49,174 nt of DNA, taken from positions 1 through 49,174 of the IMG/VR virus record IMGVR_UViG_3300016665_000612. One strand, given 5' to 3'. Source of the DNA: a virus (lineage: Duplodnaviria; Caudoviricetes). Positions 1,526 through 47,562 of this stretch are shown here, piece by piece. Position 1 is the stretch's first letter; each line of letters starts with the position of its first letter. A program made the translations under genes and the position numbers. Under the pieces are notes generated by a model. That model searched no databases, was not told where the DNA came from, and saw nothing but the letters and a program-made list of their open reading frames with translations.

Positions 1526-2758
1526 ATGTTGATTCAAGAATACCTCCTCCGAAACTCCTTCTCCACACTTCGTTCCGAGCATGGTATTAAGTCCAGTGCG
1601 CGTGCGGGTGATCGATTTTTCTCACTCAACTACGATCAGATTGAAAGCCAGCCGGGGGAAATGGTCAACCAGTGCCGCGGTGTGATCTTGAGCGTGCTTT
1701 TTGCGCTTACCGAGGAACAAATCTCTGGCGTTCTTCCTGTTGGTTTTACGACCATCCAGGCACAACCGTTTGATCGGTTCTTCAACTATGGGGATACAAA
1801 TGCGGCGTTGGTAGATTTCGAGCATCCCGACACTGTTTTCTATGAGAAACTTGATGGCACTCTCTGCATCGTGTATTTCAACACTGTGCTTTCTCAGTGG
1901 TGTGTTGCTACTCGTAGTGTGCCTACTGCCAACATCCCCATGAATGGTTGGGACGACCTTACTTTTCGTGGTCTGTTTGAGCTTGCACTACGGGATACGC
2001 TGATCCGTGGCGATCTTGTGGAGCCAACCATGCGCCCAGATTGCGCATTTGACTTCTGGACGGAGAACAAGCTCAACCCGCTCTACACTTACATGTTTGA
2101 GCTAACCACGCCAAGGAATCGGATCGTGGTAAACTATGAGGAGTCTACCGTGTGGCTGCTTGGCATTCGCAACACTCAGACAGGGGTTGAGATTCCTGTT
2201 GAAAATACAGTTGCACAAAGCCTGGGAGTGCCTGTGTGTCCTTCTTACAAACTCAACAACCTCTCGGAACTGTTGACGTTTGTTGGCTCCAAGCCGCCTT
2301 TTGAGCAAGAAGGGATTGTGGTCCGTAATGGACCCAATCGTGTCAAGCTCAAGAGCCTTGCATATACCGCATACAACCGTGTGCGGGATAGCGTGGCGAA
2401 CTCGCCACGGGCGCTTGTGGAGTTGGTGTTGCTGGAGAAGCTGGATGACGTTATGCCTGTGTTGGAACCGCATGTGCAGGCGCAGGCAACAAAGATCCAA
2501 GACGGAATCCGAAAGGTTTTCCATCACAACGATTCGGCCTATGTGGAGATTTTCGAATCTATTGCAGGGCAAGAGAACCAGCGCAAGGCATTCGCACTTG
2601 CAGTCCAAGCTCGAAAGGGCTGGATGGGTTACTTGATGGATCGGTTCCTTGGGCGATGCTCAAGCGTTTCGAACTATATCGAGCAGCGCAAGACGGCTGA
2701 TGGAAAGTACCCTGATGGACTGCTTGAGACTTTGCTGGAAATGGCACTCAAGCAATAA
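1526..2758 (+). CDS. T4 Rnl1-like RNA ligase
   Basis: Nucleotidyltransferase motif I FYEKLDGT, PFDRFFNYG, TYMFEL, EGIVV, VKLKS. Confidence 0.85.
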   Translation: MLIQEYLLRNSFSTLRSEHGIKSSARAGDRFFSLNYDQIESQPGEMVNQCRGVILSVLFALTEEQISGVLPVGFTTIQAQPFDRFFNYGDTNAALVDFEHPDTVFYEKLDGTLCIVYFNTVLSQWCVATRSVPTANIPMNGWDDLTFRGLFELALRDTLIRGDLVEPTMRPDCAFDFWTENKLNPLYTYMFELTTPRNRIVVNYEESTVWLLGIRNTQTGVEIPVENTVAQSLGVPVCPSYKLNNLSELLTFVGSKPPFEQEGIVVRNGPNRVKLKSLAYTAYNRVRDSVANSPRALVELVLLEKLDDVMPVLEPHVQAQATKIQDGIRKVFHHNDSAYVEIFESIAGQENQRKAFALAVQARKGWMGYLMDRFLGRCSSVSNYIEQRKTADGKYPDGLLETLLEMALKQ

Positions 2759-2802
2759 TACAAAAAACGAGATTTCATATAATCCTAATTAAAAGGCATT
2801 AT

Positions 2803-3087
2803 ATGAAATCTCGTTTTAAGCTTTTATTTCCCACAAAAACACCAATCCTGAAAAAAATAACAAAAACACTTCTCGGCACCATCAACTTGGCATTAGATGG
2901 AATTGAAACAATCCAGCGTTTGGATAAGTTTATTCAATCCGACTTGGGTTTGAAAACTATGTCATCTAAAAACGAGCTAGATGATATCGAGCAGTTTCTT
3001 AATCCAGCATTGATAAACATAACAGTTCGAAAGTCTATAGAAGAAACAAACTACAAATACCCAGAAAGTTTAAAAAATGAAATGTGA
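2803..3087 (+). CDS. hypothetical protein
   Basis: 94 aa ORF; TAATTA motif upstream. Confidence 0.55.
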   Translation: MKSRFKLLFPTKTPILKKITKTLLGTINLALDGIETIQRLDKFIQSDLGLKTMSSKNELDDIEQFLNPALINITVRKSIEETNYKYPESLKNEM

Positions 3088-8802: not shown

Positions 8803-9414
8803 ATGTGCATCATCGTTGTAAAGCCTGAATCCGTCGATCTTTCCATTGACACCATTGTGAACATGTGGATTCACAACCCGCATGGTGCAGGTTTCATGTA
8901 TGAGGACGACGGCAATCTCAAGATTGTCAAGGGCTTGATGAATATCAAGGATTTTTATGATGCTTATAGTTCCGTGCGAGATCGCAAGCTCGTGATCCAT
9001 TTTCGCATCCGAACTCACGGTGAAATCTCTCAAGAGCTCACACACCCGTTTCGCATTGACAGAAAGACGGGCATGGTTCACAATGGCATTCTGCCCATCA
9101 ACCCTCCCAAGGGAGAGAGTGACACCTCCTTTTTTGCTCGTCGCCTTCGGGAATCGAACCAGAACATCATGGGAGTGCTAGAGAGCCGCAAGGTGCGCCA
9201 GCGCATGATCAGTCGTATCGGCCGAAGCAAGATCGCCTTTATGAACAATGCTGGCAAGGTTCAAATTCTGAATGGGCACATGGGGCACATGGAGGCTGAC
9301 GGCTGTTGGTACTCAAACAACAGCTATAAGTCGCATGATGACTACAAGAAGCTGATTGCCCTTGACTATGATCCGAAAAACTGGTATGGCTCTTCCGAAA
9401 TGATCGTGATGTGA
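8803..9414 (+). CDS. class II glutamine amidotransferase (copy 1)
   Basis: N-terminal Cys (MCII), NPHGAG, HFRIRTHG, HPF, HNG, SDT; own leaderless sigma70 promoter. Confidence 0.9.
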   Translation: MCIIVVKPESVDLSIDTIVNMWIHNPHGAGFMYEDDGNLKIVKGLMNIKDFYDAYSSVRDRKLVIHFRIRTHGEISQELTHPFRIDRKTGMVHNGILPINPPKGESDTSFFARRLRESNQNIMGVLESRKVRQRMISRIGRSKIAFMNNAGKVQILNGHMGHMEADGCWYSNNSYKSHDDYKKLIALDYDPKNWYGSSEMIVM

Positions 9415-9493
9415 TTTTTTTTCTTGCCCCAAGTTGGCACTTGGGGTATAGTCTAAACATCAACTGACACCAACCAAGAAAACAGAAAAACAA

Positions 9494-10111
9494 ATGTGTA
9501 TCATCGTTGTCAAGCCTGCTCCGGTTCAATTTTCCATCAACACCCTGATGAATATGTGGGTAAACAATCCCCACGGGGCAGGTTTCATGTGCTCTGATGG
9601 TAACGAACTCACTGTTGTCAAGGGGCTGATGAACTTTGAGCACTTTCTTGGTGAGTATTACAAGCACGCCGCAAAGAAGATGGTGATGCACTTTCGTTGG
9701 CGCACTCATGGTCCCGTGCGCAAGACACTTACGCACCCGTTCAAGATCGCGGAGAATGTCGCTTTTGTCCACAACGGCATGATTCCTTGGGTCAAAGTCA
9801 AGGAAAATGAGAGCGATACTTCTGTCTATGCTGAGACGCTGGAACGGCGTTACACTGATGTTTTTGCTGCTCTGGAGCGTCCCCAAACCCGCAAGTTCAT
9901 TGTCGGAGAAATCGGCTTCAGTAAGCTGGCCTTTATGAACTCCGTGGGAACTGTCAAGATCCTAAACGGACAAATGGGGCACATGGGGGATAATGGCTGT
10001 TGGTATTCGAACCACAGCTATAAAAACTTCTTGTCGTATGACAAGAAGTATGGTAATGTGGACTACAATCGGAATCTTTGGATTCCGAGTGCAGACGTTC
10101 TGACTCTCTGA
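9494..10111 (+). CDS. class II glutamine amidotransferase (copy 2)
   Basis: MCII, NPHGAG, HFRWRTHG, HPF, HNG, SDT. Confidence 0.9.
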   Translation: MCIIVVKPAPVQFSINTLMNMWVNNPHGAGFMCSDGNELTVVKGLMNFEHFLGEYYKHAAKKMVMHFRWRTHGPVRKTLTHPFKIAENVAFVHNGMIPWVKVKENESDTSVYAETLERRYTDVFAALERPQTRKFIVGEIGFSKLAFMNSVGTVKILNGQMGHMGDNGCWYSNHSYKNFLSYDKKYGNVDYNRNLWIPSADVLTL

Positions 10112-10182
10112 TCTGCCTCGAAAATAGTTGTTGACTCCAATAGCGAAATAGTTTAGTATGGTTTCACTGAGTGGGTGAAACC

Positions 10183-10245
10183 ACAACCCTCAAGAAATAA
10201 GAAAGATAAGCAACAAATGTGTATCATCGCTCTCAAGCCCGAGAA
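10183..10245 (+). repeat. 63-bp direct repeat (copy 1; copy 2 at 11089..11151)
   Basis: Identical leader plus first ~10 codons of GATase copies 3 and 4. Confidence 0.85.
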
Positions 10246-10987
10246 CATTTCGATTTCCGACCAAACCATCAAGAACATGTGGGAGAACAATGATGATGGT
10301 GCAGGTTTCATGTACGCAGACCGTGGCAAGGTGCGAATCGTCAAAGGGCTGATGACTCTTGACTCGTTCATGGATGCTTACCGCCGTGTGGGCGATCACC
10401 GCAAGATTGTTATGCACTTCCGTATCCGAACTCATGGTGAGATCTCCCAGGAGCTTACGCACCCGTTTTGGATTCGTCAGGGCATCCTTGGCATGGTTCA
10501 CAACGGAGTGATCTCTTCGGTGGGTCACACTGGAAAGGCAAACGAAAGCGACACTTCGCTCTATGCGCGGAATCTTTCTAAGCGTTTTGTCAATCCGGTC
10601 AAGTCTCTCGAAAGCTCTGAGGTGCTTGAAAAGATCAAGTCTGAAATCGGCTATAGCAAGTTGGTTTTCTTGACAAATGACAATCGGCACATCATTGTCA
10701 ACGAAAAGCTCGGTGATTGGCATGATGGTTGCTGGTTCTCGAATGGCAGTCACAAAACCAACTATACTCGTTGGTCTTACAAGAATGCTTGGATGGCTGA
10801 GGATTATAGTGGTTACGAAGGGTATAAGCCCTACACCGCCAGCACAGGAACTTACAACCGTACAGCGGCCTTTACCCCCACGGCTGCTTCTGAGTCTCCT
10901 TTGGTCGTTGTGCCTGCTAGTGATGATGCTGAATGGGAAGCGTTGATCAATCGTTACGAGGCTCGTTACGGCTCGGTGCGAACCTGA
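10217..10987 (+). CDS. class II glutamine amidotransferase (copy 3)
   Basis: ATG 10217 gives MCII; NDDGAG, HFRIRTHG, HNG, SDT; C-terminal extension. Confidence 0.9.
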   Translation: MCIIALKPENISISDQTIKNMWENNDDGAGFMYADRGKVRIVKGLMTLDSFMDAYRRVGDHRKIVMHFRIRTHGEISQELTHPFWIRQGILGMVHNGVISSVGHTGKANESDTSLYARNLSKRFVNPVKSLESSEVLEKIKSEIGYSKLVFLTNDNRHIIVNEKLGDWHDGCWFSNGSHKTNYTRWSYKNAWMAEDYSGYEGYKPYTASTGTYNRTAAFTPTAASESPLVVVPASDDAEWEALINRYEARYGSVRT

Positions 10988-11122
10988 TAGTTTCAACTTC
11001 TGAACCCACTACGATTTTTCTTGTACCCAACAAGAAATGTGATATAGTGGGTTCAGAAGTAAGGAACAACCCCGAAACTCTCACCACTACAACCCTCAAG
11101 AAATAAGAAAGATAAGCAACAA

Positions 11123-11974
11123 ATGTGTATCATCGCTCTCAAGCCCGAGAAGGTTCAGTTTTCGCGTGCGCAGCTCAAGATTATGTGGGATAACAACCCT
11201 GACGGGGCTGGCTTCATGTACGCCGAGGACGGCGTTGTCAAGATTGTGAAGGGTCTTATGACGCTCGATGCGCTTGAGAATGCCATCAACGAGGTTGGTC
11301 CGCTGCGAAAGCTCGTGATTCACTTCCGCATTCGAACGCACGGGGCGATCTCCAAGGAGCTCACGCATCCGTTCTGGATCACTGAGAACTCGCTTGGGAT
11401 GGTTCACAACGGCGTGATTCGCAACCTTGTGAACCAGACTTCTGAGGCTGAGAGCGATACCGCCGTGTTCGCTCGTTCCTTCGCTGATGCATACGTTTCG
11501 CCCCTTCAGGCGATTCGCAACCCGTTTCACCGGGATATGCTGGAGGCTTACATCGGATTCAGCAAGATGGTTTTCCTTGACAGCAAGGGGCGCCACTACA
11601 TCCTGAATGAGTCGCTTGGCACTTGGGAGAACAATGTTTGGTACTCAAATGATCGGTTCAAGCCCGACCTCCCCCGCGTTTCAGGGAATACGCGAGTAAT
11701 CTACCCTGTTACTCAAGCCGCGAGTTATTCCAGGGAGCAGCGCCAGCTTGAACTTGAGCAAGCGTTCGATGGGCTTGAGTACAAGTCCCGCACCGACCGC
11801 TCTAGCGGCTCCCGTCGTGGCAACCGTTCTAGTGGGGTTGTGCATGTAAGCCGCGGCTCTGAGAACACCCGGCGTCGCCAGAAGGCGCTTCTGGGTTGCC
11901 CCACGACTCGACTCTCTGAGTCGTATTGGGATTCCCAGGACTTTCCCGGTGCGGAATACCCCGTCGAAGATTGA
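11123..11974 (+). CDS. class II glutamine amidotransferase (copy 4)
   Basis: MCII, NPDGAG, HFRIRTHG, HNG, SDT; Arg/Ser-rich C-terminal tail. Confidence 0.9.
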   Translation: MCIIALKPEKVQFSRAQLKIMWDNNPDGAGFMYAEDGVVKIVKGLMTLDALENAINEVGPLRKLVIHFRIRTHGAISKELTHPFWITENSLGMVHNGVIRNLVNQTSEAESDTAVFARSFADAYVSPLQAIRNPFHRDMLEAYIGFSKMVFLDSKGRHYILNESLGTWENNVWYSNDRFKPDLPRVSGNTRVIYPVTQAASYSREQRQLELEQAFDGLEYKSRTDRSSGSRRGNRSSGVVHVSRGSENTRRRQKALLGCPTTRLSESYWDSQDFPGAEYPVED

Positions 11975-30816: not shown

Positions 30817-31584
30817 ATGTCTTTACAAACTCTTATTGACTCTCTTGTGCTTGATGCAGCCTTGCTTGAAGGGGTGATGGACAAAGAGACAACAATGATA
30901 TCAAGGTTGGCAGTTCAAAAACTGAAGAGTTTTATTGGCTCATCTAAGTCTACAAAACTGAAGAAAACCTCTTTAGAGTTTGAAACAACTGTTAATGGTT
31001 CTCCTTTGGATGTTCTAATCCAAGTTTTACCAATGAAGTTGTCAAACACTTTAAAAGCAGGTAGTGGCGAGTTTCAAACCTATCGCTACAAAAGTGATCC
31101 TAAGCAGGGTGCCGTGTTGCCGTCGTTACCCAACGACAAACTGGTTCTAAATGTCATTGTTCCACTTGATAGAAGAGTGATTGAAAACAGCCAGTGGGAG
31201 CCTTTTGTGCTGACGTTTAAATCAGTAATCAGGCATGAGTTAGAGCACTCAAGACAGAAAGCCCGCAGCAATAAAACAGCATTGGCGAACCCAACAAGTT
31301 TTTTTGGTGCTGAACTTGATACTGAGCAGATTTTTGTTGACCCCGAAGCTGCTTTGAGATATTATACTTCTCCTCATGAGGTTGAAGCGTATGTGATGCA
31401 AATCTACAGAACAGCCAAGATGAAAAAAATTCCCTTTACAAAAGCTCTCAAAGAGTATATAACAGGATCACTAGGACAAAACATCTTGAGAGGAATGGGA
31501 GTCGCAAAAGGTATCAAAGTCCTGAACACAATCAAGAAAGCTTGGTTAGATTACGCTTCCAAACGCCTTCCTGGCGTTGTTTGA
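30817..31584 (+). CDS. putative zincin-like metallopeptidase (paralog of 37468..38157)
   Basis: VIRHELEH..Q and YY.SPHEVEAYVM. Confidence 0.6.
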   Translation: MSLQTLIDSLVLDAALLEGVMDKETTMISRLAVQKLKSFIGSSKSTKLKKTSLEFETTVNGSPLDVLIQVLPMKLSNTLKAGSGEFQTYRYKSDPKQGAVLPSLPNDKLVLNVIVPLDRRVIENSQWEPFVLTFKSVIRHELEHSRQKARSNKTALANPTSFFGAELDTEQIFVDPEAALRYYTSPHEVEAYVMQIYRTAKMKKIPFTKALKEYITGSLGQNILRGMGVAKGIKVLNTIKKAWLDYASKRLPGVV

Positions 31585-35281: not shown

Positions 35282-35572
35282 ATGATCGCAGTTAAGTCGT
35301 TTGGTTTTGGCATCTATGCATACACCCTCTATCCTTTTGTGGAACTTGTCAAACAGTCCATGGGTAAAAACTGGCGAGGAATTGGCCCTCTTTTCTATCT
35401 CCTCTTTGCATGTGCAATGAACATTGCGCTTATGTTAAGCGGTGCCCTGACAGGATACGTTCTTGGAGAGAGCAAAATGGCTTATTGGGCGCTTGTTCCA
35501 GCGGTTGTGATTTCGCTCGCTTCTTCTCTGTTTGACTTCAAGATTGAAGTTGACACACCGGAAGAAGTCTGA
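35282..35572 (+). CDS. small membrane protein
   Basis: 2-3 hydrophobic segments; AGGA RBS. Confidence 0.65.
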   Translation: MIAVKSFGFGIYAYTLYPFVELVKQSMGKNWRGIGPLFYLLFACAMNIALMLSGALTGYVLGESKMAYWALVPAVVISLASSLFDFKIEVDTPEEV

Positions 35573-35612
35573 TAGTGTAAAGAAGTTGGTGAGACAACAA
35601 ACATCAACAAAT

Positions 35613-35685
35613 GGGCTTCTAGCTTAACGGTCAAAGCTCTCGCCTTTTAAGCGACAAGATCAGGGTTCGAATCCCTGGGGGCCTA
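35613..35685 (+). tRNA. tRNA-Lys(TTT)
   Basis: TCGC-CTTTTAA-GCGA; canonical T-arm. Confidence 0.85.
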
Positions 35686-35767
35686 CTAAAGACAGCCGGA
35701 TAGACGGCACATGGGTTCATAGCTCAACTGGCAGAGCATCATATTGATCTATCAACTACATATATAC

Positions 35768-36118
35768 ATGCAAAAATGTATTGAATGTGGCAAAGAATAT
35801 CAGTATGATAGAAAAAAGGGTCATCGTAAAAACTGGTGTAACAGTTGCATGGTCAACAAACGAAGAATGACCATAGACAAAAAGTGTTTGGAATACAAAG
35901 GTGGTAAATGTGAGTTGTGTGGGTATAGCAAATGCAAAAGGTCTTTGCAGTTTCATCACATAAAACCAGAAACAAAAACATTCCAAATATCTGGAAATTG
36001 GGGATTGAGTTGGGAAAAACTCAAAACAGAACTTGACAAATGCATACTAGTGTGTGCTAATTGTCACGGAGAAATACACGAGGGCTTGTGGCAGACTGGC
36101 AATGCAGCGGACTTTTAA
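35768..36118 (+). CDS. HNH endonuclease
   Basis: CELCGY...LQFHH..P..K...ELDKC.LVCANCHGEIH; stop TAA lies in the inner tRNA anticodon loop. Confidence 0.85.
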   Translation: MQKCIECGKEYQYDRKKGHRKNWCNSCMVNKRRMTIDKKCLEYKGGKCELCGYSKCKRSLQFHHIKPETKTFQISGNWGLSWEKLKTELDKCILVCANCHGEIHEGLWQTGNAADF

Positions 36119-36153
36119 TCCGAAAGATGATGGTTCAATTCCCTCCGAGCCCA
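36082..36153 (+). tRNA. tRNA-Lys(TTT), nested replacement copy
   Basis: GGGCTTG/CGAGCCC-A; CGGA-CTTTTAA-TCCG. Confidence 0.8.
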
Positions 36154-36280
36154 TTTTAAGCGGAAGCGTGGGGGATCGTTGCCCTCTGGACCTACCATTC
36201 AATCTTATATCAACAGAGGTGAGATAGTTGTGTACACACAACATGTAGGAAGTTGGATCGACTTTCTATAAACCTCCTAC

Positions 36281-36355
36281 GGTGCTGTAGCCCAACTGGT
36301 AGCAGGCAATGGTCTAAGAAGCCATTCAGTGCGAGTTCGAATCTCGCCAGCACCA
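36281..36355 (+). tRNA. tRNA-Leu(AAG), short variable loop
   Basis: ATGGT-CTAAGAA-GCCAT; A34; 5-nt variable loop. Confidence 0.8.
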
Positions 36356-36394
36356 CTTTTATGCCAGCGTGGCGAAATGGTAGACGCCGGAGAC

Positions 36395-36871
36395 TTACTT
36401 TTTCTTCTTGTTTCTACCACAATAAGTTGATGTTTGAGAATGACAATTAGGGCATAACAAACGCAGGTTACTTAAACTATTGTCGGTATTTTGACCATTG
36501 ATATGATCAAGATGCAATACAATTGGACCCCCTTGCCATGAAGAAAGTCCGCAAATAAAACAAGTATATGCAAAAATGCCTTCATCTATTAAACGTTTTT
36601 TAAGTCTATTAGATGATGTATAGCTTGCATCACCAGATAATATATCCGAAAGTTTAATATTACGATTCCAGTTATGTTTTTTGCCTTTAAGATGTCCTTG
36701 TCCCGTCCAATGTGTTGTGCTTATGGATAAGTTTTCTATGGCTTTTTTAATTGTTTTGTAATTTCCTCCTGCTGGTTTTAAACCAAGAACATTCAAAACG
36801 CCAGCAAGTGAATAACAACAAGAAACAGCAGAAATTAATTGTTTTGTTGTCCAGGTTTGTTTTTTAGGCAT
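36395..36871 (-). CDS. HNH endonuclease
   Basis: CFICG...LHLDHINGQNTDNSLSNLRLLCPNCHSQT; N-terminal HTH-like region. Confidence 0.9.
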   Translation of the reverse strand: MPKKQTWTTKQLISAVSCCYSLAGVLNVLGLKPAGGNYKTIKKAIENLSISTTHWTGQGHLKGKKHNWNRNIKLSDILSGDASYTSSNRLKKRLIDEGIFAYTCFICGLSSWQGGPIVLHLDHINGQNTDNSLSNLRLLCPNCHSQTSTYCGRNKKKK

Positions 36872-37000
36872 ACTTTATAGCAGAGTGTCATTTTTGACAT
36901 TACAAGTAAGTATGCCGTAAACGGTCACATAGCCCAATCGGCAGTAGGCAGGGAACTTAAAATTCCTAAAGTATGGGTTCGAATCCCATTGTGACTACAA
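36398..37000. mobile_element. HNH + replacement tRNA-Leu(TAA) cassette
   Basis: ~603-bp insert inside the anticodon, carrying an antisense HNH and an intact tRNA-Leu(TAA). Confidence 0.8.
36923..36997 (+). tRNA. tRNA-Leu(TAA), nested replacement copy, short variable loop
   Basis: GGTCACA/TGTGACT-A; GGGAA-CTTAAAA-TTCCT. Confidence 0.85.
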
Positions 37001-37087
37001 AAATCTCTTGACCCTTAGTGGTCGTATGGGTTCGACTCCCTTCGCTGGTACTGCTATAACAAAAAACCTTAACACAAATTAAGGAAA

Positions 37088-37417
37088 ATGATCTACGGTC
37101 TAAAAAACACATACGGTGAATCTTGGACGTTTTGTGACCCATCTAAAAGGTTTGCACCTTCCTATGGGCCTGTAAAGGAAAAGGCAATCTTTTCTATTTG
37201 CCTTGAGGAATACTTGCAGGAAGGCGATGGAAATTGCCCCTTCCCAGGCCCAGAGCACCCTTGGGAGTTTTACAAGGCAGAGACACAACAGGATCTCGAA
37301 GAGGGACGTGGTGAGCTAATCGCCAGCCTTCACAACGGTACGCCAGAAGCTCTCTGGGAGCTTTATCATTGGTGCCGCGGCGGCTGCGTAAAAGTGGGCG
37401 TTAGTCTGAGTTACTGA
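37088..37417 (+). CDS. hypothetical protein
   Basis: AAGGA RBS; 109 aa. Confidence 0.65.
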   Translation: MIYGLKNTYGESWTFCDPSKRFAPSYGPVKEKAIFSICLEEYLQEGDGNCPFPGPEHPWEFYKAETQQDLEEGRGELIASLHNGTPEALWELYHWCRGGCVKVGVSLSY

Positions 37418-37467: not shown

Positions 37468-38157
37468 ATGTCAAAGAATCATCGCAGTTTTACCACCGCA
37501 CTATCGCGTATCATTGTCAATCATATCAAGTATCACAGTTCTTCATTGATTCCCGAGATCCGTTTTGAGCAGGATGAATTGCTTGTGATCGCTACTGTTG
37601 TTGAGCGAACAACCGTAGCTCATGACGTTGGTGGAGTGAACAGTGCGACTTACAACTCGTTGTCGAAAACAATCCGAATTGAGTTGTCGGTTCCTCTAAA
37701 CATTAACTCTACTTGGTGGATGCCTTTCATTGCCAAGCTGAAAAAAGTAATTCGCCACGAATATGAGCACTATGTTCAACATAAACGCTCTGGTGACTTG
37801 TCCAGCGACGCACTAAAGCCACTATTGATTGTTAATGACAATTACAATGGCAAACCAACCAATAAGCCTTGGCTGAAGATCAGCGATGCTCTTAGATACT
37901 TGCTCAATCCTATTGAAGTTGAAGCTCACGTTATGGGAATCGCAGCAGTAGCAAAGTATCGCAAAATCAAGTTCAATGTTGTATTGAAGGAAGTTTTGAA
38001 AGACATTGAAGAGGAGCTATCTTATGACTTCAAAGATAGCCATATTCGATTCCTACTTCGTCGCGTTTACGAAACCTGGGGGTTCTATGCTCTCGCCCGG
38101 TTTCCTTCGTTGCGTGTCAAACGTCAACGGCGACTGATTGGATTCAATCGTCACTGA
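37468..38157 (+). CDS. putative zincin-like metallopeptidase (paralog of 30817..31584)
   Basis: VIRHEYEH..Q and YL.NPIEVEAHVM. Confidence 0.6.
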   Translation: MSKNHRSFTTALSRIIVNHIKYHSSSLIPEIRFEQDELLVIATVVERTTVAHDVGGVNSATYNSLSKTIRIELSVPLNINSTWWMPFIAKLKKVIRHEYEHYVQHKRSGDLSSDALKPLLIVNDNYNGKPTNKPWLKISDALRYLLNPIEVEAHVMGIAAVAKYRKIKFNVVLKEVLKDIEEELSYDFKDSHIRFLLRRVYETWGFYALARFPSLRVKRQRRLIGFNRH

Positions 38158-39008: not shown

Positions 39009-39094
39009 GGGTAAGTAACTCAACGGTAGAGTAAGAGCCGCACCCCAAAACAGGGTTAGAGTTCTTGATGCTGGTTCAATTCCAGCCTTACCCA
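39009..39094 (+). tRNA. tRNA-like RNA with a 22-nt structured anticodon loop
   Basis: Perfect acceptor, D and T arms; AGAGC-[CGC ACCC CAAAACA GGGT TAGA]-GTTCT. Confidence 0.6.
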
Positions 39095-41053: not shown

Positions 41054-41541
41054 ATATTTTTGCTCTTGACATAGATCCCGAACAAGCTGCAAAGTGGCAT
41101 TGCGATGCTCATGTGATCGTAATGCCCAAAGAAGCTGCACAGATGCTTTCCACGATTCATAGAATCGCTGGGCATCATGGCAGTTTTTACCAAGCAACTC
41201 ACCGCAACCATCCTTGCACCCTGTGGGCAAGGTCTAGCAGGGAAAACTATCTTTGGCTTTGGCGACTTGGATACTTTCTTTGTCAAGAATATACTTTGCG
41301 TTATGGCAAAGAACACAGATCACAGGCTGTACTTTCTCAGGTAAGGAACATCCCGGATATTGTTCCAAGTGGCAGACTGACAAAGTTTCCACTTGTCATG
41401 CCTGATGCCTACAAAGATTCAAATCCCATTCATGCTTACCGGAAGTTCTACCGGGGCGAAAAACGCAATGGCCGTCTAGGCACTTGGAAGCTCAACAAGC
41501 CCTATTGGTGGGATACGACACTCACTCAGTTCTGGCTTTGA
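41050..41541 (+). CDS. pyrimidine-dimer DNA glycosylase family (DenV-like) protein
   Basis: MNIFALD.DP..AA..HCD.HV..M..E.AQML, TH.NHPC..W, EY..RYGK.H, AYR.FY. Confidence 0.8.
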   Translation: MNIFALDIDPEQAAKWHCDAHVIVMPKEAAQMLSTIHRIAGHHGSFYQATHRNHPCTLWARSSRENYLWLWRLGYFLCQEYTLRYGKEHRSQAVLSQVRNIPDIVPSGRLTKFPLVMPDAYKDSNPIHAYRKFYRGEKRNGRLGTWKLNKPYWWDTTLTQFWL

Positions 41542-42008
41542 CCACGAGGCTTGTACTCAACCTGATAAGGGTTCCAGATGACAATTTCAGTCAGCGTTCC
41601 ATTGAAATACTGAAAAATTGCATCATGGCCTTTAGCTAGGGCAAGCTTTTTAAGCTGGGTGCCAACATAGCCGTACTTCTCTTCTTCTTTTTCAACAATC
41701 CTTATGGCTTTTTCCTCTTGAACCCCAAGAGCGACTAAAGCTTTTATTACTGGATGTTGTTTGTCGCCACTTTCAATCTTCAAAGGATTGCGCACACGAA
41801 GTCTTGTTTGAACAAGAATGCCACCTGATTCTTTGGCATATCTTTCTGCAACATTTTTAATTGGTGTGAAGTAGGCTCCCGCACCCAATGCTCCACGACC
41901 ATTCACTTTGATAGGCTTAATTCCGTCCCAAGAACCACCATGGTAAACTGGAGAGATGTTGAAGTCCTGATCGCTTTCCAGTAAAAGGCTGTAAAGACTA
42001 AATTTCAT
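41526..42008 (-). CDS. ADP-ribosyltransferase-like (ART-PolyVal-type) protein
   Basis: VYHG...G.GAYFT....AERYA...NPL...GHDAI...EIVIWNP.QV; TACTTA upstream. Confidence 0.6.
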   Translation of the reverse strand: MKFSLYSLLLESDQDFNISPVYHGGSWDGIKPIKVNGRGALGAGAYFTPIKNVAERYAKESGGILVQTRLRVRNPLKIESGDKQHPVIKALVALGVQEEKAIRIVEKEEEKYGYVGTQLKKLALAKGHDAIFQYFNGTLTEIVIWNPYQVEYKPRGQSQN

Positions 42009-42118
42009 GTAAGTAAGTATAATTTTCAATAGTTCTTTGTAAACTTTTTGTCCGAAATGTATTTACTTCTACAAACCCCCATGCTAGTATTAGCAAAGCA
42101 ACCAAACAGGAGAATTTT

Positions 42119-42601
42119 CTGAAAACACGAAAGAATGAGCAAATCAGAGCCTATCAAGTAAGTCTAATTTCCGCAGAAGGAAAGCTGCTTGGAAATTTTT
42201 CACGCAGAGATGCGTTGGAAATGGCTCGGGATGAAGGACTAGATCTGGTTGAGGTAAACCCCAATTCCAACCCGCCAGTTTGCAAGCTAGCCGACTATGG
42301 TAGAATGATGTATAATCTGAACAAGAACAAGAAGCCTGTTCAGAAGTCGGAACTGAAAACAATTCAATTGCGCCCTGGAATCGGGGAAAATGATCTTGAT
42401 GTCAAAATCAGGAAAATTGAAGAGTTTTTGACGGACAAACACAAAGTGTGTTTGACGATGAAGTTTCGTGGTCGAGAGATTGCTCACCAAGATTTGGGTC
42501 TGAAAGTTCTTGAGCAAGTTGTCGCTGCTCTTGGAAACAAGTACAAAAATGTGAGCAAACCAAGTCTGAGCAACAAAGTCATCACCATGATGATCGAGTG
42601 A
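42119..42601 (+). CDS. infC: translation initiation factor IF-3
   Basis: NEQIRA..V.LI..EG..LG, GLDLVEV...PPVCKLADYG, K.IQLRP.I...D...K, MKFRGRE; AGGAG RBS then CTG start. Confidence 0.9.
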   Translation: MKTRKNEQIRAYQVSLISAEGKLLGNFSRRDALEMARDEGLDLVEVNPNSNPPVCKLADYGRMMYNLNKNKKPVQKSELKTIQLRPGIGENDLDVKIRKIEEFLTDKHKVCLTMKFRGREIAHQDLGLKVLEQVVAALGNKYKNVSKPSLSNKVITMMIE

Positions 42602-43662: not shown

Positions 43663-43787
43663 AGAAACTGGTTGACAACGAAAGAAGAAAGCAGTAAGAT
43701 AGTTACAGATCAACGGTCCCATACACTAACGGTTTAGGTGACTACCCTCTCAAGGTGAAATGAAGGTTAGAGTGCATACTTAATTGC

Positions 43788-44207
43788 ATGAGATGCAACA
43801 AGTGTGATCAAGAGAAGTCTGAAACAGATTTTGCAGCTTCGAAAAAATACGGAAAACAACCTTGGTGTCGTCAATGCCAGAAGAAAAGTCACAAAGCATA
43901 CTACCAAAAGAACAAACAGCACTTCATCGAGTATAAAGAATCAGTCAAACGACAAAGGCAAAAACAGCTACTAACTTACATGCAGGAGCAAGGTTGTAAG
44001 GACTGTGGCATCAAAGACCCACTTGTTTTGGAATTTGATCACATTGATCCAGAAACAAAAATAGAAAGTGTTTGCAAACTGTTGCAAAAAGGCCGAAAAA
44101 TGGAAACGATTTTGGCAGAAGTGGCAAAATGTGAAGTGAGATGCTGTAACTGTCATCGTAGAAGAACCATCCAGCAATTTGGATGGTATCGTGCTCGCAT
44201 AGATTAA
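43788..44207 (+). CDS. HNH endonuclease
   Basis: N-terminal CxxC..CxxC; CKDCG...LEFDHIDP..K...EVAKCEVRCCNCH; last codons overlap the inner tRNA. Confidence 0.85.
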   Translation: MRCNKCDQEKSETDFAASKKYGKQPWCRQCQKKSHKAYYQKNKQHFIEYKESVKRQRQKQLLTYMQEQGCKDCGIKDPLVLEFDHIDPETKIESVCKLLQKGRKMETILAEVAKCEVRCCNCHRRRTIQQFGWYRARID

Positions 44208-44269
44208 CTGGCTAAATCACCTGATTCTCAATCAGGTAAGTCCGGGTTCGAGTCCCGGTGCGAGTGCCA
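44193..44269 (+). tRNA. tRNA-Glu(CTC), nested replacement copy
   Basis: GCTCGCA/TGCGAGT-G-CCA; CCTGA-TTCTCAA-TCAGG. Confidence 0.9.
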
Positions 44270-44343
44270 ACACTGGCGGGTTCAAATCCCCCTGGGATCA
44301 TATTATCGAGTTTTAGTGACTAACATAAAGCTCAAAAACTCAC

Positions 44344-44417: not shown

Positions 44418-44554
44418 CTATGATTGTCTGCATGTGATATCTTTGGGGTCACTGAGTTGGAAAGGCTTGGCAATCATTCCAAGGTCGCTGGAGGTAATAG
44501 CCAGTCACTCTACCCAAGAGGGGTGTAGCTCAGTCAGAGCGTGGAAACTTTCCC

Positions 44555-44644: not shown

Positions 44645-45151
44645 ATCCCCTTAACTCACCAGATTAGAGTGCCACGCTTCGAACGTGGAAAAAAAGTTCG
44701 AAACATCATAATTAGATGTGTGAATTTAACAAAAACGTGTTCTCGTTGCCATAACGAATTTGAACTAAGCAAGTTCGCTATTAATCGGACTCGTTCTGAC
44801 GGACTAAATTCTAATTGTAAGTTGTGTCAAAAAGAATACCATAAAAAGCATTACCAAAATAACAAGAATTATTATGTTCAAAAAGCTCGTTATCACACTT
44901 CAAAACTTGAACAGTGGGTGAGAGAATTTAAACAAAAACCTTGTGCAGATTGCGGAAAAGAATATCCGTATTATGTGATGCAATTTGATCATCTTTCAGA
45001 TAAAGAATTTGTGCTTGCTAAAGCAAGGCTCTTTAGCAAAAAGAAAATATTAGAAGAAATTCACAAATGTGAAGTGGTTTGCGCAAATTGTCATGCGGAA
45101 CGAACACATAAAAGACGCCAGATACAATAGGTTCGATTCCTATAGGGGATA
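44645..45151 (+). pseudogene. split tRNA-Arg(TCG): 5' part 44645..~44690, 3' part ~45127..45151
   Basis: ATCCCCT/AGGGGAT-A; CCACG-CTTCGAA-CGTGG; T-arm ATAGG-TTCGATT-CCTAT after the HNH. Confidence 0.8.
44720..45130 (+). CDS. HNH endonuclease inserted in the tRNA-Arg(TCG) variable loop
   Basis: CSRC...CKLC; CADCG...MQFDHL...EIHKCEVVCANCHAERT; GTG start inferred; stop TAG lies in the T-stem. Confidence 0.85.
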   Translation: MNLTKTCSRCHNEFELSKFAINRTRSDGLNSNCKLCQKEYHKKHYQNNKNYYVQKARYHTSKLEQWVREFKQKPCADCGKEYPYYVMQFDHLSDKEFVLAKARLFSKKKILEEIHKCEVVCANCHAERTHKRRQIQ

Positions 45152-47202: not shown

Positions 47203-47277
47203 GCTCTTGTAGCCCAACTGGTAGCAGGCAACCGTCTCAAAAGCGGTAAAGTGTGGGTTCGAATCCCACCAGGAGCA
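47203..47277 (+). tRNA. tRNA-Leu(CAA), short variable loop
   Basis: ACCGT-CTCAAAA-GCGGT; 5-nt variable loop. Confidence 0.8.
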
Positions 47278-47297
47278 CAAACACTGTTTTTAATCAT

Positions 47298-47481: not shown

Positions 47482-47556
47482 GCCTTTGTAGTCCAACTGG
47501 TAGCAGACATACGTCTCAGAAACGTAACAGTGAGGGTTCAAATCCCTCCAAAGGCA
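47482..47556 (+). tRNA. tRNA-Leu(CAG), short variable loop
   Basis: TACGT-CTCAGAA-ACGTA. Confidence 0.8.
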
Positions 47557-47562
47557 CTAACT

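Follow-up and report, generated by a model that had tools for sequence, protein, structure and literature searches.

A phage tRNA-Leu(UAA) gene split by an HNH endonuclease gene and a second tRNA-Leu(UAA): a candidate cut-and-replace homing cassette

The split gene, its insert and the uninterrupted allele

A class II tRNA-Leu(UAA) gene of a viral contig is split by an insert of 603 bp, which contains one open reading frame, an intact tRNA-Leu(UAA) gene of 75 bases and, between them, a spacer of 51 bases; all 603 bases are accounted for. The window, that is the whole stretch of DNA analysed here, is the entire contig of 49,174 bases, and the following features lie at the locus:

36363..36396, plus strand: 5' half of the resident tRNA-Leu(UAA) gene, positions 1-34 (profile match 14.8 bits)
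36395..36871, minus strand: HNH endonuclease gene of the HegA/F-TflIV family, 158 aa, its stop overlapping the 5' half of the target
36397..36999, equally 36398-37000, no strand: insert of 603 bp (joint from 36396 to 37000 in five of eight compared runs)
36872..36922, no strand: spacer of 51 bp between the divergent nuclease and tRNA genes
36923..36997, plus strand: intact tRNA-Leu(UAA) with short variable arm, likely the replacement (ARAGORN, 36923-36998; Rfam, 60.4 bits)
37000..37050, plus strand: 3' half of the resident gene, from A35 to the discriminator A73, with long variable arm (20.6 bits)

The splitting is confirmed. The 5' half holds the 5' strand of the acceptor stem, the D arm, the 5' strand of the anticodon stem and C32, U33 and U34, and the A at 36397 may also be part of it. 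The insertion point is the bond between U34 and A35 and no target base is lost; one A, at 36397 or at 37000, fits both junctions and makes the cut ambiguous by a single base. A sequence-only reading of the window had proposed that excision of 36398..37000 restores a complete class II tRNA-Leu, and this is what we found: two joins were compared by script, 36397 with 37001 (the cut of that reading) and 36396 with 37000, and in either register ARAGORN calls a tRNA-Leu(taa) with seven of seven acceptor pairs and five of five anticodon-stem pairs. Applied to both strands of the window, a detector of split tRNA genes reported one pair, namely this one, and it reported one strict pair in 983,400 shuffled bases used as control. 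The insert is trimmed to the stop codon of the nuclease at one end and to 2 bases beyond the discriminator of the inner tRNA at the other. The nuclease gene is on the minus strand, with 36395-97 complementary to its TAA stop codon, as had been read before. Its promoter would be expected in the spacer; a scan gave three promoter-like sites against 2.2 expected, which is chance level, and none of them within 36872..36922.

The inner gene had been described as a structurally different tRNA-Leu(UAA), and it is: its variable loop has 5 nt, against the long arm of the outer gene, and only 49 aligned identities exist between the two. In tRNA-Leu, A14, A15, U48 and A73 are leucine identity elements, and all four are read from the sequence of this spare gene. 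Its anticodon arm differs from that of the target at 4 of 17 positions, since pairs 29-41 and 30-40 are swapped with the stem kept. Among the ARAGORN calls it is the sole intact reader of UUA on the contig, which is probably not a whole genome. When the isolated inner tRNA is folded its acceptor, anticodon and T stems form, whereas the inner cloverleaf is not formed in folding of the whole precursor. Three other tRNA-Leu genes with short variable arm (36281-36356, 47203-47278 and 47482-47557, with anticodons AAG, CAA and CAG) are present alongside long-arm ones, and two structural classes of leucine tRNA are thereby kept by the phage.

The contig is likely part of a large uncultured phage. ARAGORN finds 41 tRNA genes on it (50 at relaxed threshold), and it also encodes translation initiation factor IF3 (42215-42601), two RNA ligase homologs, DHFR and several HNH genes; an ADP-ribosyltransferase (ART-PolyVal, 41526-42029) lies, like IF3, in the tRNA region. 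The best-matching run is a freshwater metagenome. A DNA search of named phages returned 57 records with short matches, none covering 80%; one distant locus was found for the contig's IF3 and the best match of the RNA ligase was at 28%. Four tandem paralogs matching phrog_25883 occupy 8803-11974, and two genes at 30817-31584 and about 37468-38157 are apparent mutual paralogs with a HELEH/HEYEH motif and no family match; for the second of them no relative was found. Stems resembling T arms also occur outside the standard ARAGORN calls (19273, 19397, 29411, 31721, 33395, 39009-39094 and 48486), and could be either unusual tRNAs or tRNA-like RNAs.

Three more tRNA genes of the contig are split by HNH genes, two of them with a tRNA of the same anticodon inside:

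35713-36194: tRNA-Lys(UUU) split by an HNH gene (35768-36118) and an intact tRNA-Lys(UUU)
43715-44300: tRNA-Glu(CUC) interrupted close to the T arm by an HNH gene (43788-44207) and an intact tRNA-Glu(CUC)
44645-45151: tRNA-Arg(UCG) interrupted at its T arm, the insert being an HNH gene with no inner tRNA called

These three nucleases belong to phrog_2255; the favoured neighbour of its relatives is Asn(GUU), with 44 cases counted without dereplication. A near-identical strain in run X2 is without the 415-base Lys insert and has 6 more target bases there, and in X4 the Lys insert is present within another gene order. Near 44523 there is one more orphan 5' half of a tRNA.

Eight of the 22 listed sequencing runs were compared with the window; small matching shares were not used as evidence of habitat. 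Contigs of X4, X5, X7, X8 and X9 pass from 36396 to 37000, skipping 603 bases, with one letter that fits both sides. X7, X8 and X9 are DNA runs, by a guessed class, from three studies, and X4 and X5 are RNA runs from one study; since the uninterrupted gene is found in three DNA-classed runs, the joined form needs no splicing. Compared with these alleles the 5' half has 1-2 differences in 36 bases and the 3' half 4 in 52. The X9 contig is syntenic with the window on to 37120 (7 differences and 1 gap), a synteny of the empty allele that holds on the 3' side only and in X9 only, as X5 and X8 diverge from the window outside the gene. As for the occupied allele, one contig of X1, possibly the source run, spans the stretch with 0 differences, and in X2, which comes from another study, the left junction is crossed with 0 differences and much of the nuclease gene is covered; the right junction is seen in X1 only among the compared runs. 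The insert is real, optional and clean. Its optional presence is that of homing endonucleases, for which a cognate allele without the nuclease gene exists, and the insertion looks recent. An exact search of viral contigs with a 26-base piece of the 5' half gave 0 matches.

Comparison with the group I intron of tRNA-Leu(UAA)

The analysis supports the conclusion that the insert is not a group I intron. Rfam reports no Intron_gpI in 35500-37200, even at an E value of 10, an outcome that had been anticipated from the sequence. The absence of core motifs also stands: a profile built on the intron cores of relatives, which in leave-one-out recovers 14 of 14 relatives' introns with 20-123 bits, yields no match of at least 0 bits in the insert. 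The terminal G of the 3' splice site is present in 14 of 14 intron-borne relatives and absent here, where the insert ends in A in both registers. Antisense orientation, by contrast, which had been offered as an argument against an intron, is by itself no such argument, because at locus L017 an antisense homolog of the nuclease lies within a group I intron of the same gene.

The sequence-only reading had placed the insertion in the same loop as the tRNA-Leu(UAA) intron. This is correct and can be made more exact, because the insert can be placed at the very same bond, U34^A35; the group I intron of tRNA-Leu(UAA), type Leu.3Ug, sits after U34 (bioRxiv 10.1101/2020.01.27.920355). The likeness therefore extends to gene and bond, and 14 relatives of the window nuclease reside in such introns. 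The difference is that the window insert is without ribozyme core and terminal G, that the gene stays broken and that a second gene substitutes for it.

It is very improbable that the insert is excised from RNA, by a degenerate ribozyme or by protein-catalysed cutting and ligation, so that the outer tRNA is still made. The classical intron site would agree with such an excision, as would the two RNA ligase homologs on the contig, the outer acceptor stem, which is predicted to pair across the insert with a probability of 0.92-0.99, and the joined form found in two RNA runs. Nevertheless, core and terminal G are absent from the insert, no outer anticodon stem is predicted, its enforced formation carrying a penalty of about 10 kcal/mol, and the contigs of the RNA runs match the DNA run X8 in their differences (2 and 4) and in an upstream loose end. 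This resemblance to X8 indicates that they come from the uninterrupted gene of a relative and are not splicing products.

The nuclease family and its tRNA neighbours

The nuclease matches phrog_10822 over its length (E 4e-4 against the Pfam HNH family, just under the cut-off, and 9e-50 against the phrog), and T5 HegA at 45% over 74 aa, with a profile probability of 99.7 over 135 columns; a public record names a homolog hegA, F-TflIV. An alignment of 31 rows has 17 invariant columns, which are kept in the window nuclease by definition and include two Cys pairs; C104, C107, H123, N135, C140, N142, C143 and H144 are invariant in 31 of 31 rows. In the predicted model (pLDDT 85.8, pTM 0.53) the N-terminal part, about 1-58, appears as a helical, HTH-like and DNA-binding-like domain, and the C-terminal part as a zinc-bound, McrA-like HNH domain. 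Fold matches are weak: Foldseek gave no match at E 0.001 or better, and the best Z of a VIA fold comparison was 5.1, which only agrees with an HTH-like plus McrA-like build. An HNH domain with intact metal and catalytic residues is thus joined to a putative DNA-binding domain. At position 36768 one X2 contig (depth 3.6) alters the codon of the invariant G35, which may be an error or early decay.

The gene has 33% GC, compared with 45% in 26 genes of the window, and TTA makes up 7 of its 18 leucine codons, against 40 of 598 in the same 26 genes. We considered the idea that this codon use is linked to the tRNA and rejected it: relatives beside non-Leu tRNAs have an excess of like size (0.13 vs 0.19), so the excess is put down mainly to AT richness.

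According to PMC5714182 and PMC2330249, T5 HegA, or F-TflIV, is a free-standing HNH endonuclease of the T5 tRNA region. The T5 gene, free-standing in a tRNA cluster, is homologous to the window nuclease over 135 columns; it encodes 227 aa and is sense to its tRNAs, while the window gene encodes 158 aa and is antisense. No paired tRNA halves were seen by eye around T5 hegA; the window nuclease, unlike it, lies inside its likely target and carries a tRNA with the same anticodon. F-TflIV reportedly cleaves within a pseudopalindrome of 17 bp and produces 1-nt 3' ends (a 2004 study). An anticodon arm is a pseudopalindrome of 17 bp as well; its centre is base 35, the ambiguous base of the insert junction, and such a cut pattern would fit both the arm and the one-base ambiguity; we take this as a lead and not as a result. 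In a cultured Enterococcus phage (L325, 1100-1900) a hegA homolog was seen by eye between two tRNA-like halves with no inner tRNA.

From each of three collections, in which at least 605, at least 587 and at least 572 loci were confirmed, the best 80 were taken as a sample of the family, and dereplication left 215 loci, that is 214 relatives and the window. Within this best-80 set a tRNA adjoins the nuclease at 163 of 215 loci, with the nuclease in sense in 134 cases and antisense in 29. Leu(TAA) accounts for 45 of 220 nuclease neighbours; among other tRNAs the count is 15 of 726. For all leucine tRNAs together the counts are 127 of 220 and 96 of 726; the loci are kin, so that p values of this bias overstate it. 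In branches further away the partner is a Gln, Phe, Cys, His or Trp tRNA. The closest nucleases accompany long-arm tRNAs and not the short-arm type of the window, which indicates that the pair of nuclease and cargo in the window is not old and that the two have been reshuffled. On actinobacterial chromosomes (L181-L240) many homologs were seen directly upstream of tRNA-Leu(UAG).

Paired tRNA halves span the nuclease in 24 of the 214 best-80 relatives (1 in the reversed control), and lone orphan halves were seen at several more. Fifteen of the 24 are without an inner tRNA, and 14 of these are introns, preceded by U and ending in G, whose exon ends are those of the window insert, namely the classical Leu.3Ug site. 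Rfam Intron_gpI scores L129 at 57.8 bits and L167 at 51.3 bits, above the cut-off, and L017 weakly. At the fifteenth paired locus, L164, the nuclease is free and adjoins a tRNA-Leu(UAA) gene whose group I intron has no ORF, and L116, L165 and L172 have the same arrangement:

L116, 1500-2390; L164, L165 and L172, near 2500-3000: free nuclease next to a tRNA-Leu(UAA) gene with ORF-less intron

At L116 a decayed 5' half may be upstream, and its nuclease groups with those of L031 and L050, which are intron-borne. Other split or intron-bearing genes were seen away from the nuclease: a cassette-like split tRNA gene (L021, 5180-5980), an intron-like one of 371 bases (L030, 6740-7110) and a Leu(UAA) group I intron of 70 bits (L022, 2400-3160).

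A nuclease and one tRNA lie together between paired halves in nine of the best-80 relatives; L102 and L222 were dropped as nested cassettes, being weak, so that seven were kept and the full nested layout is found in only 7 of 214. Cargo and broken gene agree by full anticodon at L012 and L112, and by a partial remnant or by arm class at L049, L097 and L119 and, weakly, at L057 and L079.

The phylogenies were a FastTree tree and trees of 56, 49 and 51 rows. In the 51-row tree, an unrooted one whose rows were hand-picked after a first tree and which came from a quick LG+G4 search and has many weak branches, the 12 intron-borne rows need 7 state changes and a single clade of them is rejected (p-AU 3e-84); without a known root, intron gain is not distinguishable from loss. 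We suggest, tentatively and at less than even chances, that the anticodon of tRNA-Leu is the homing site of a single nuclease family, whose repair partners are interchangeable at one bond: a self-splicing intron (L017, L031, L129, L167), a spare tRNA (the window, L012, L097) or a neighbouring tRNA gene with ORF-less intron (L116, L164, L165, L172), the intron-borne nucleases not being one clade.

A cassette that may break its target and carry a replacement

The insert is probably a free-standing homing-endonuclease cassette which, instead of being a self-splicing intron, breaks its target and carries a replacement tRNA-Leu(UAA); the spare tRNA likely takes the place of splicing as repair of the gene broken by the insertion. 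What points to such a cassette is the uninterrupted allele, the bias towards leucine targets, the use of the same bond by 14 introns, the relatives of the same layout and the homology to HegA, together with the foreign make-up of the gene (33% vs 45% GC) and the two further same-anticodon nests of the contig.

During co-infection the nuclease would cut the DNA of the anticodon stem-loop in the uninterrupted tRNA-Leu gene of a sister phage. The break would then be repaired from the cassette allele, the retained halves and the flanks serving as homology, and insertion would destroy the cut site, so that the donor would be protected in the manner of intron-borne nucleases. The spare would keep UUA decoding, at little cost to the carrier, and its swapped stem pairs may lower its own cutting; expression of the nuclease would be damped by its antisense position among transcribed tRNA genes. 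The cut-and-copy steps follow the homing literature (PMC2988022, PMC2330249).

Several observations weaken the proposal of a homing cassette. The closest relative by BLAST in the best-80 set (L081, 57%) adjoins an intact tRNA-Leu(UAA) whose 17-base anticodon arm is that of the target, and immunity of the spare to the nuclease is for this reason doubtful. At L112 the central 13 bases of the arm are the same in cargo and target. In cultured Felixounavirus-type phages a 38% homolog lies directly upstream of a tRNA-Leu(UAG), which is identical in SP22, where the nuclease is present, and in three of three phages without it. The bias in the arm core is modest: the usual core is found in 12 of 46 nuclease-adjacent and 15 of 28 non-adjacent Leu(TAA) genes (p 0.025, kinship uncorrected). 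Moreover nested relatives are few, the nuclease-cargo pair is not old and the synteny of the empty allele is one-sided. The nested form may be the footprint of a capture, and immunity may not rest on the arm.

If so, a block of nuclease and neighbouring tRNA from another phage would have been pasted once into a break, leaving a footprint and not a homing unit, and the matching anticodon would merely reflect the habit of the family of adjoining tRNA-Leu genes. We consider this unlikely. Most relatives adjoin an intact tRNA with no paired halves, order and orientation vary, near relatives differ in cargo type, the Felixounavirus-type alleles have the same tRNA, and the low-depth X2 contig with the changed G35 codon, which may be an error, would also agree with a single event. 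Such an event would nevertheless have had to fall on the exact bond of 14 intron-borne relatives and to leave ends trimmed as closely as those described above; every invariant residue of the nuclease is intact, and X2, from another study, also has the left junction and the nuclease gene.

Anticodon-nuclease defences are known to cut tRNA-Lys(UUU). It could be argued that the altered stem of the spare was selected against such a host nuclease and that the HNH enzyme spreads the resistant allele, in a mutualistic anti-defence module. The cargo does differ from the target in two stem pairs and in arm class, the nearby Lys(UUU) nest involves the very tRNA cut by these defences, and phage tRNAs neutralise tRNA-cutting defences while SegB amplifies such tRNAs (PMC13096335). 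We regard this as highly unlikely; the phage already has three other short-arm leucine tRNAs, so that the short-arm shape is not special to the cassette.

The cassette reading can also be set beside known mobile elements. Integrative elements enter tRNA genes and restore them, and the window insert likewise lies in a tRNA gene, the function of which would be kept; it carries, however, a whole unrelated tRNA in place of a duplicated end, and no recombinase or att duplication was found in it, its single ORF being the HNH gene and at most one base fitting both junctions. An archaeal case of such an element is described in PMC3293823. SegB of T4/T6, an agent of intronless homing, is free-standing, cuts tRNA genes and moves with neighbouring tRNA genes (PMC2330249, PMC13096335, PMC2988022). 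It resembles the window nuclease in being a free-standing nuclease in a tRNA cluster. SegB, however, is a GIY-YIG enzyme whose recognition motif is in the T-loop of many tRNAs and whose gene is intergenic, at a distance from its main site; the window nuclease is an HNH enzyme biased to one tRNA type, and whereas SegB and SegF lie outside and far from their sites, its gene lies inside its likely target.

The gene-splitting insertions mobE/nrdA of Aeh1 and mobA/gene 60 of T4, collaborative homing (PMC2988022) and HEG-islands (PMC10448857) share with the window a nuclease gene in a conserved part of a host gene or one travelling with useful cargo or with an ORF-less intron. In those systems the parts of the split gene remain functional or nucleases lie on either side of the cargo, while the window cargo substitutes for the gene that the insertion destroyed. 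PMC8421152 and PMC6409571 note HNH genes in the vicinity of tRNA arrays, and no more. In the literature searched, outside which subscription papers mostly lay, no description was found of a tRNA gene that houses a nuclease together with a replacement of the same anticodon.

Homing endonucleases in essential sites normally hide in an intron or an intein, and breaking the gene while carrying a substitute would be a third way. It would explain many orphan tRNA halves, duplicate anticodons and the fast turnover of tRNAs in large phages, and it would link the characterised T5 enzyme family to a defined type of target. If the swapping of repair partners at one bond is true, the spare-tRNA cassette would be a cut-and-replace element and a stepping stone by which the tRNA-Leu(UAA) intron gains or loses mobility; the occurrence of the same family inside, beside and without this intron would permit a direct test of how the intron moves.
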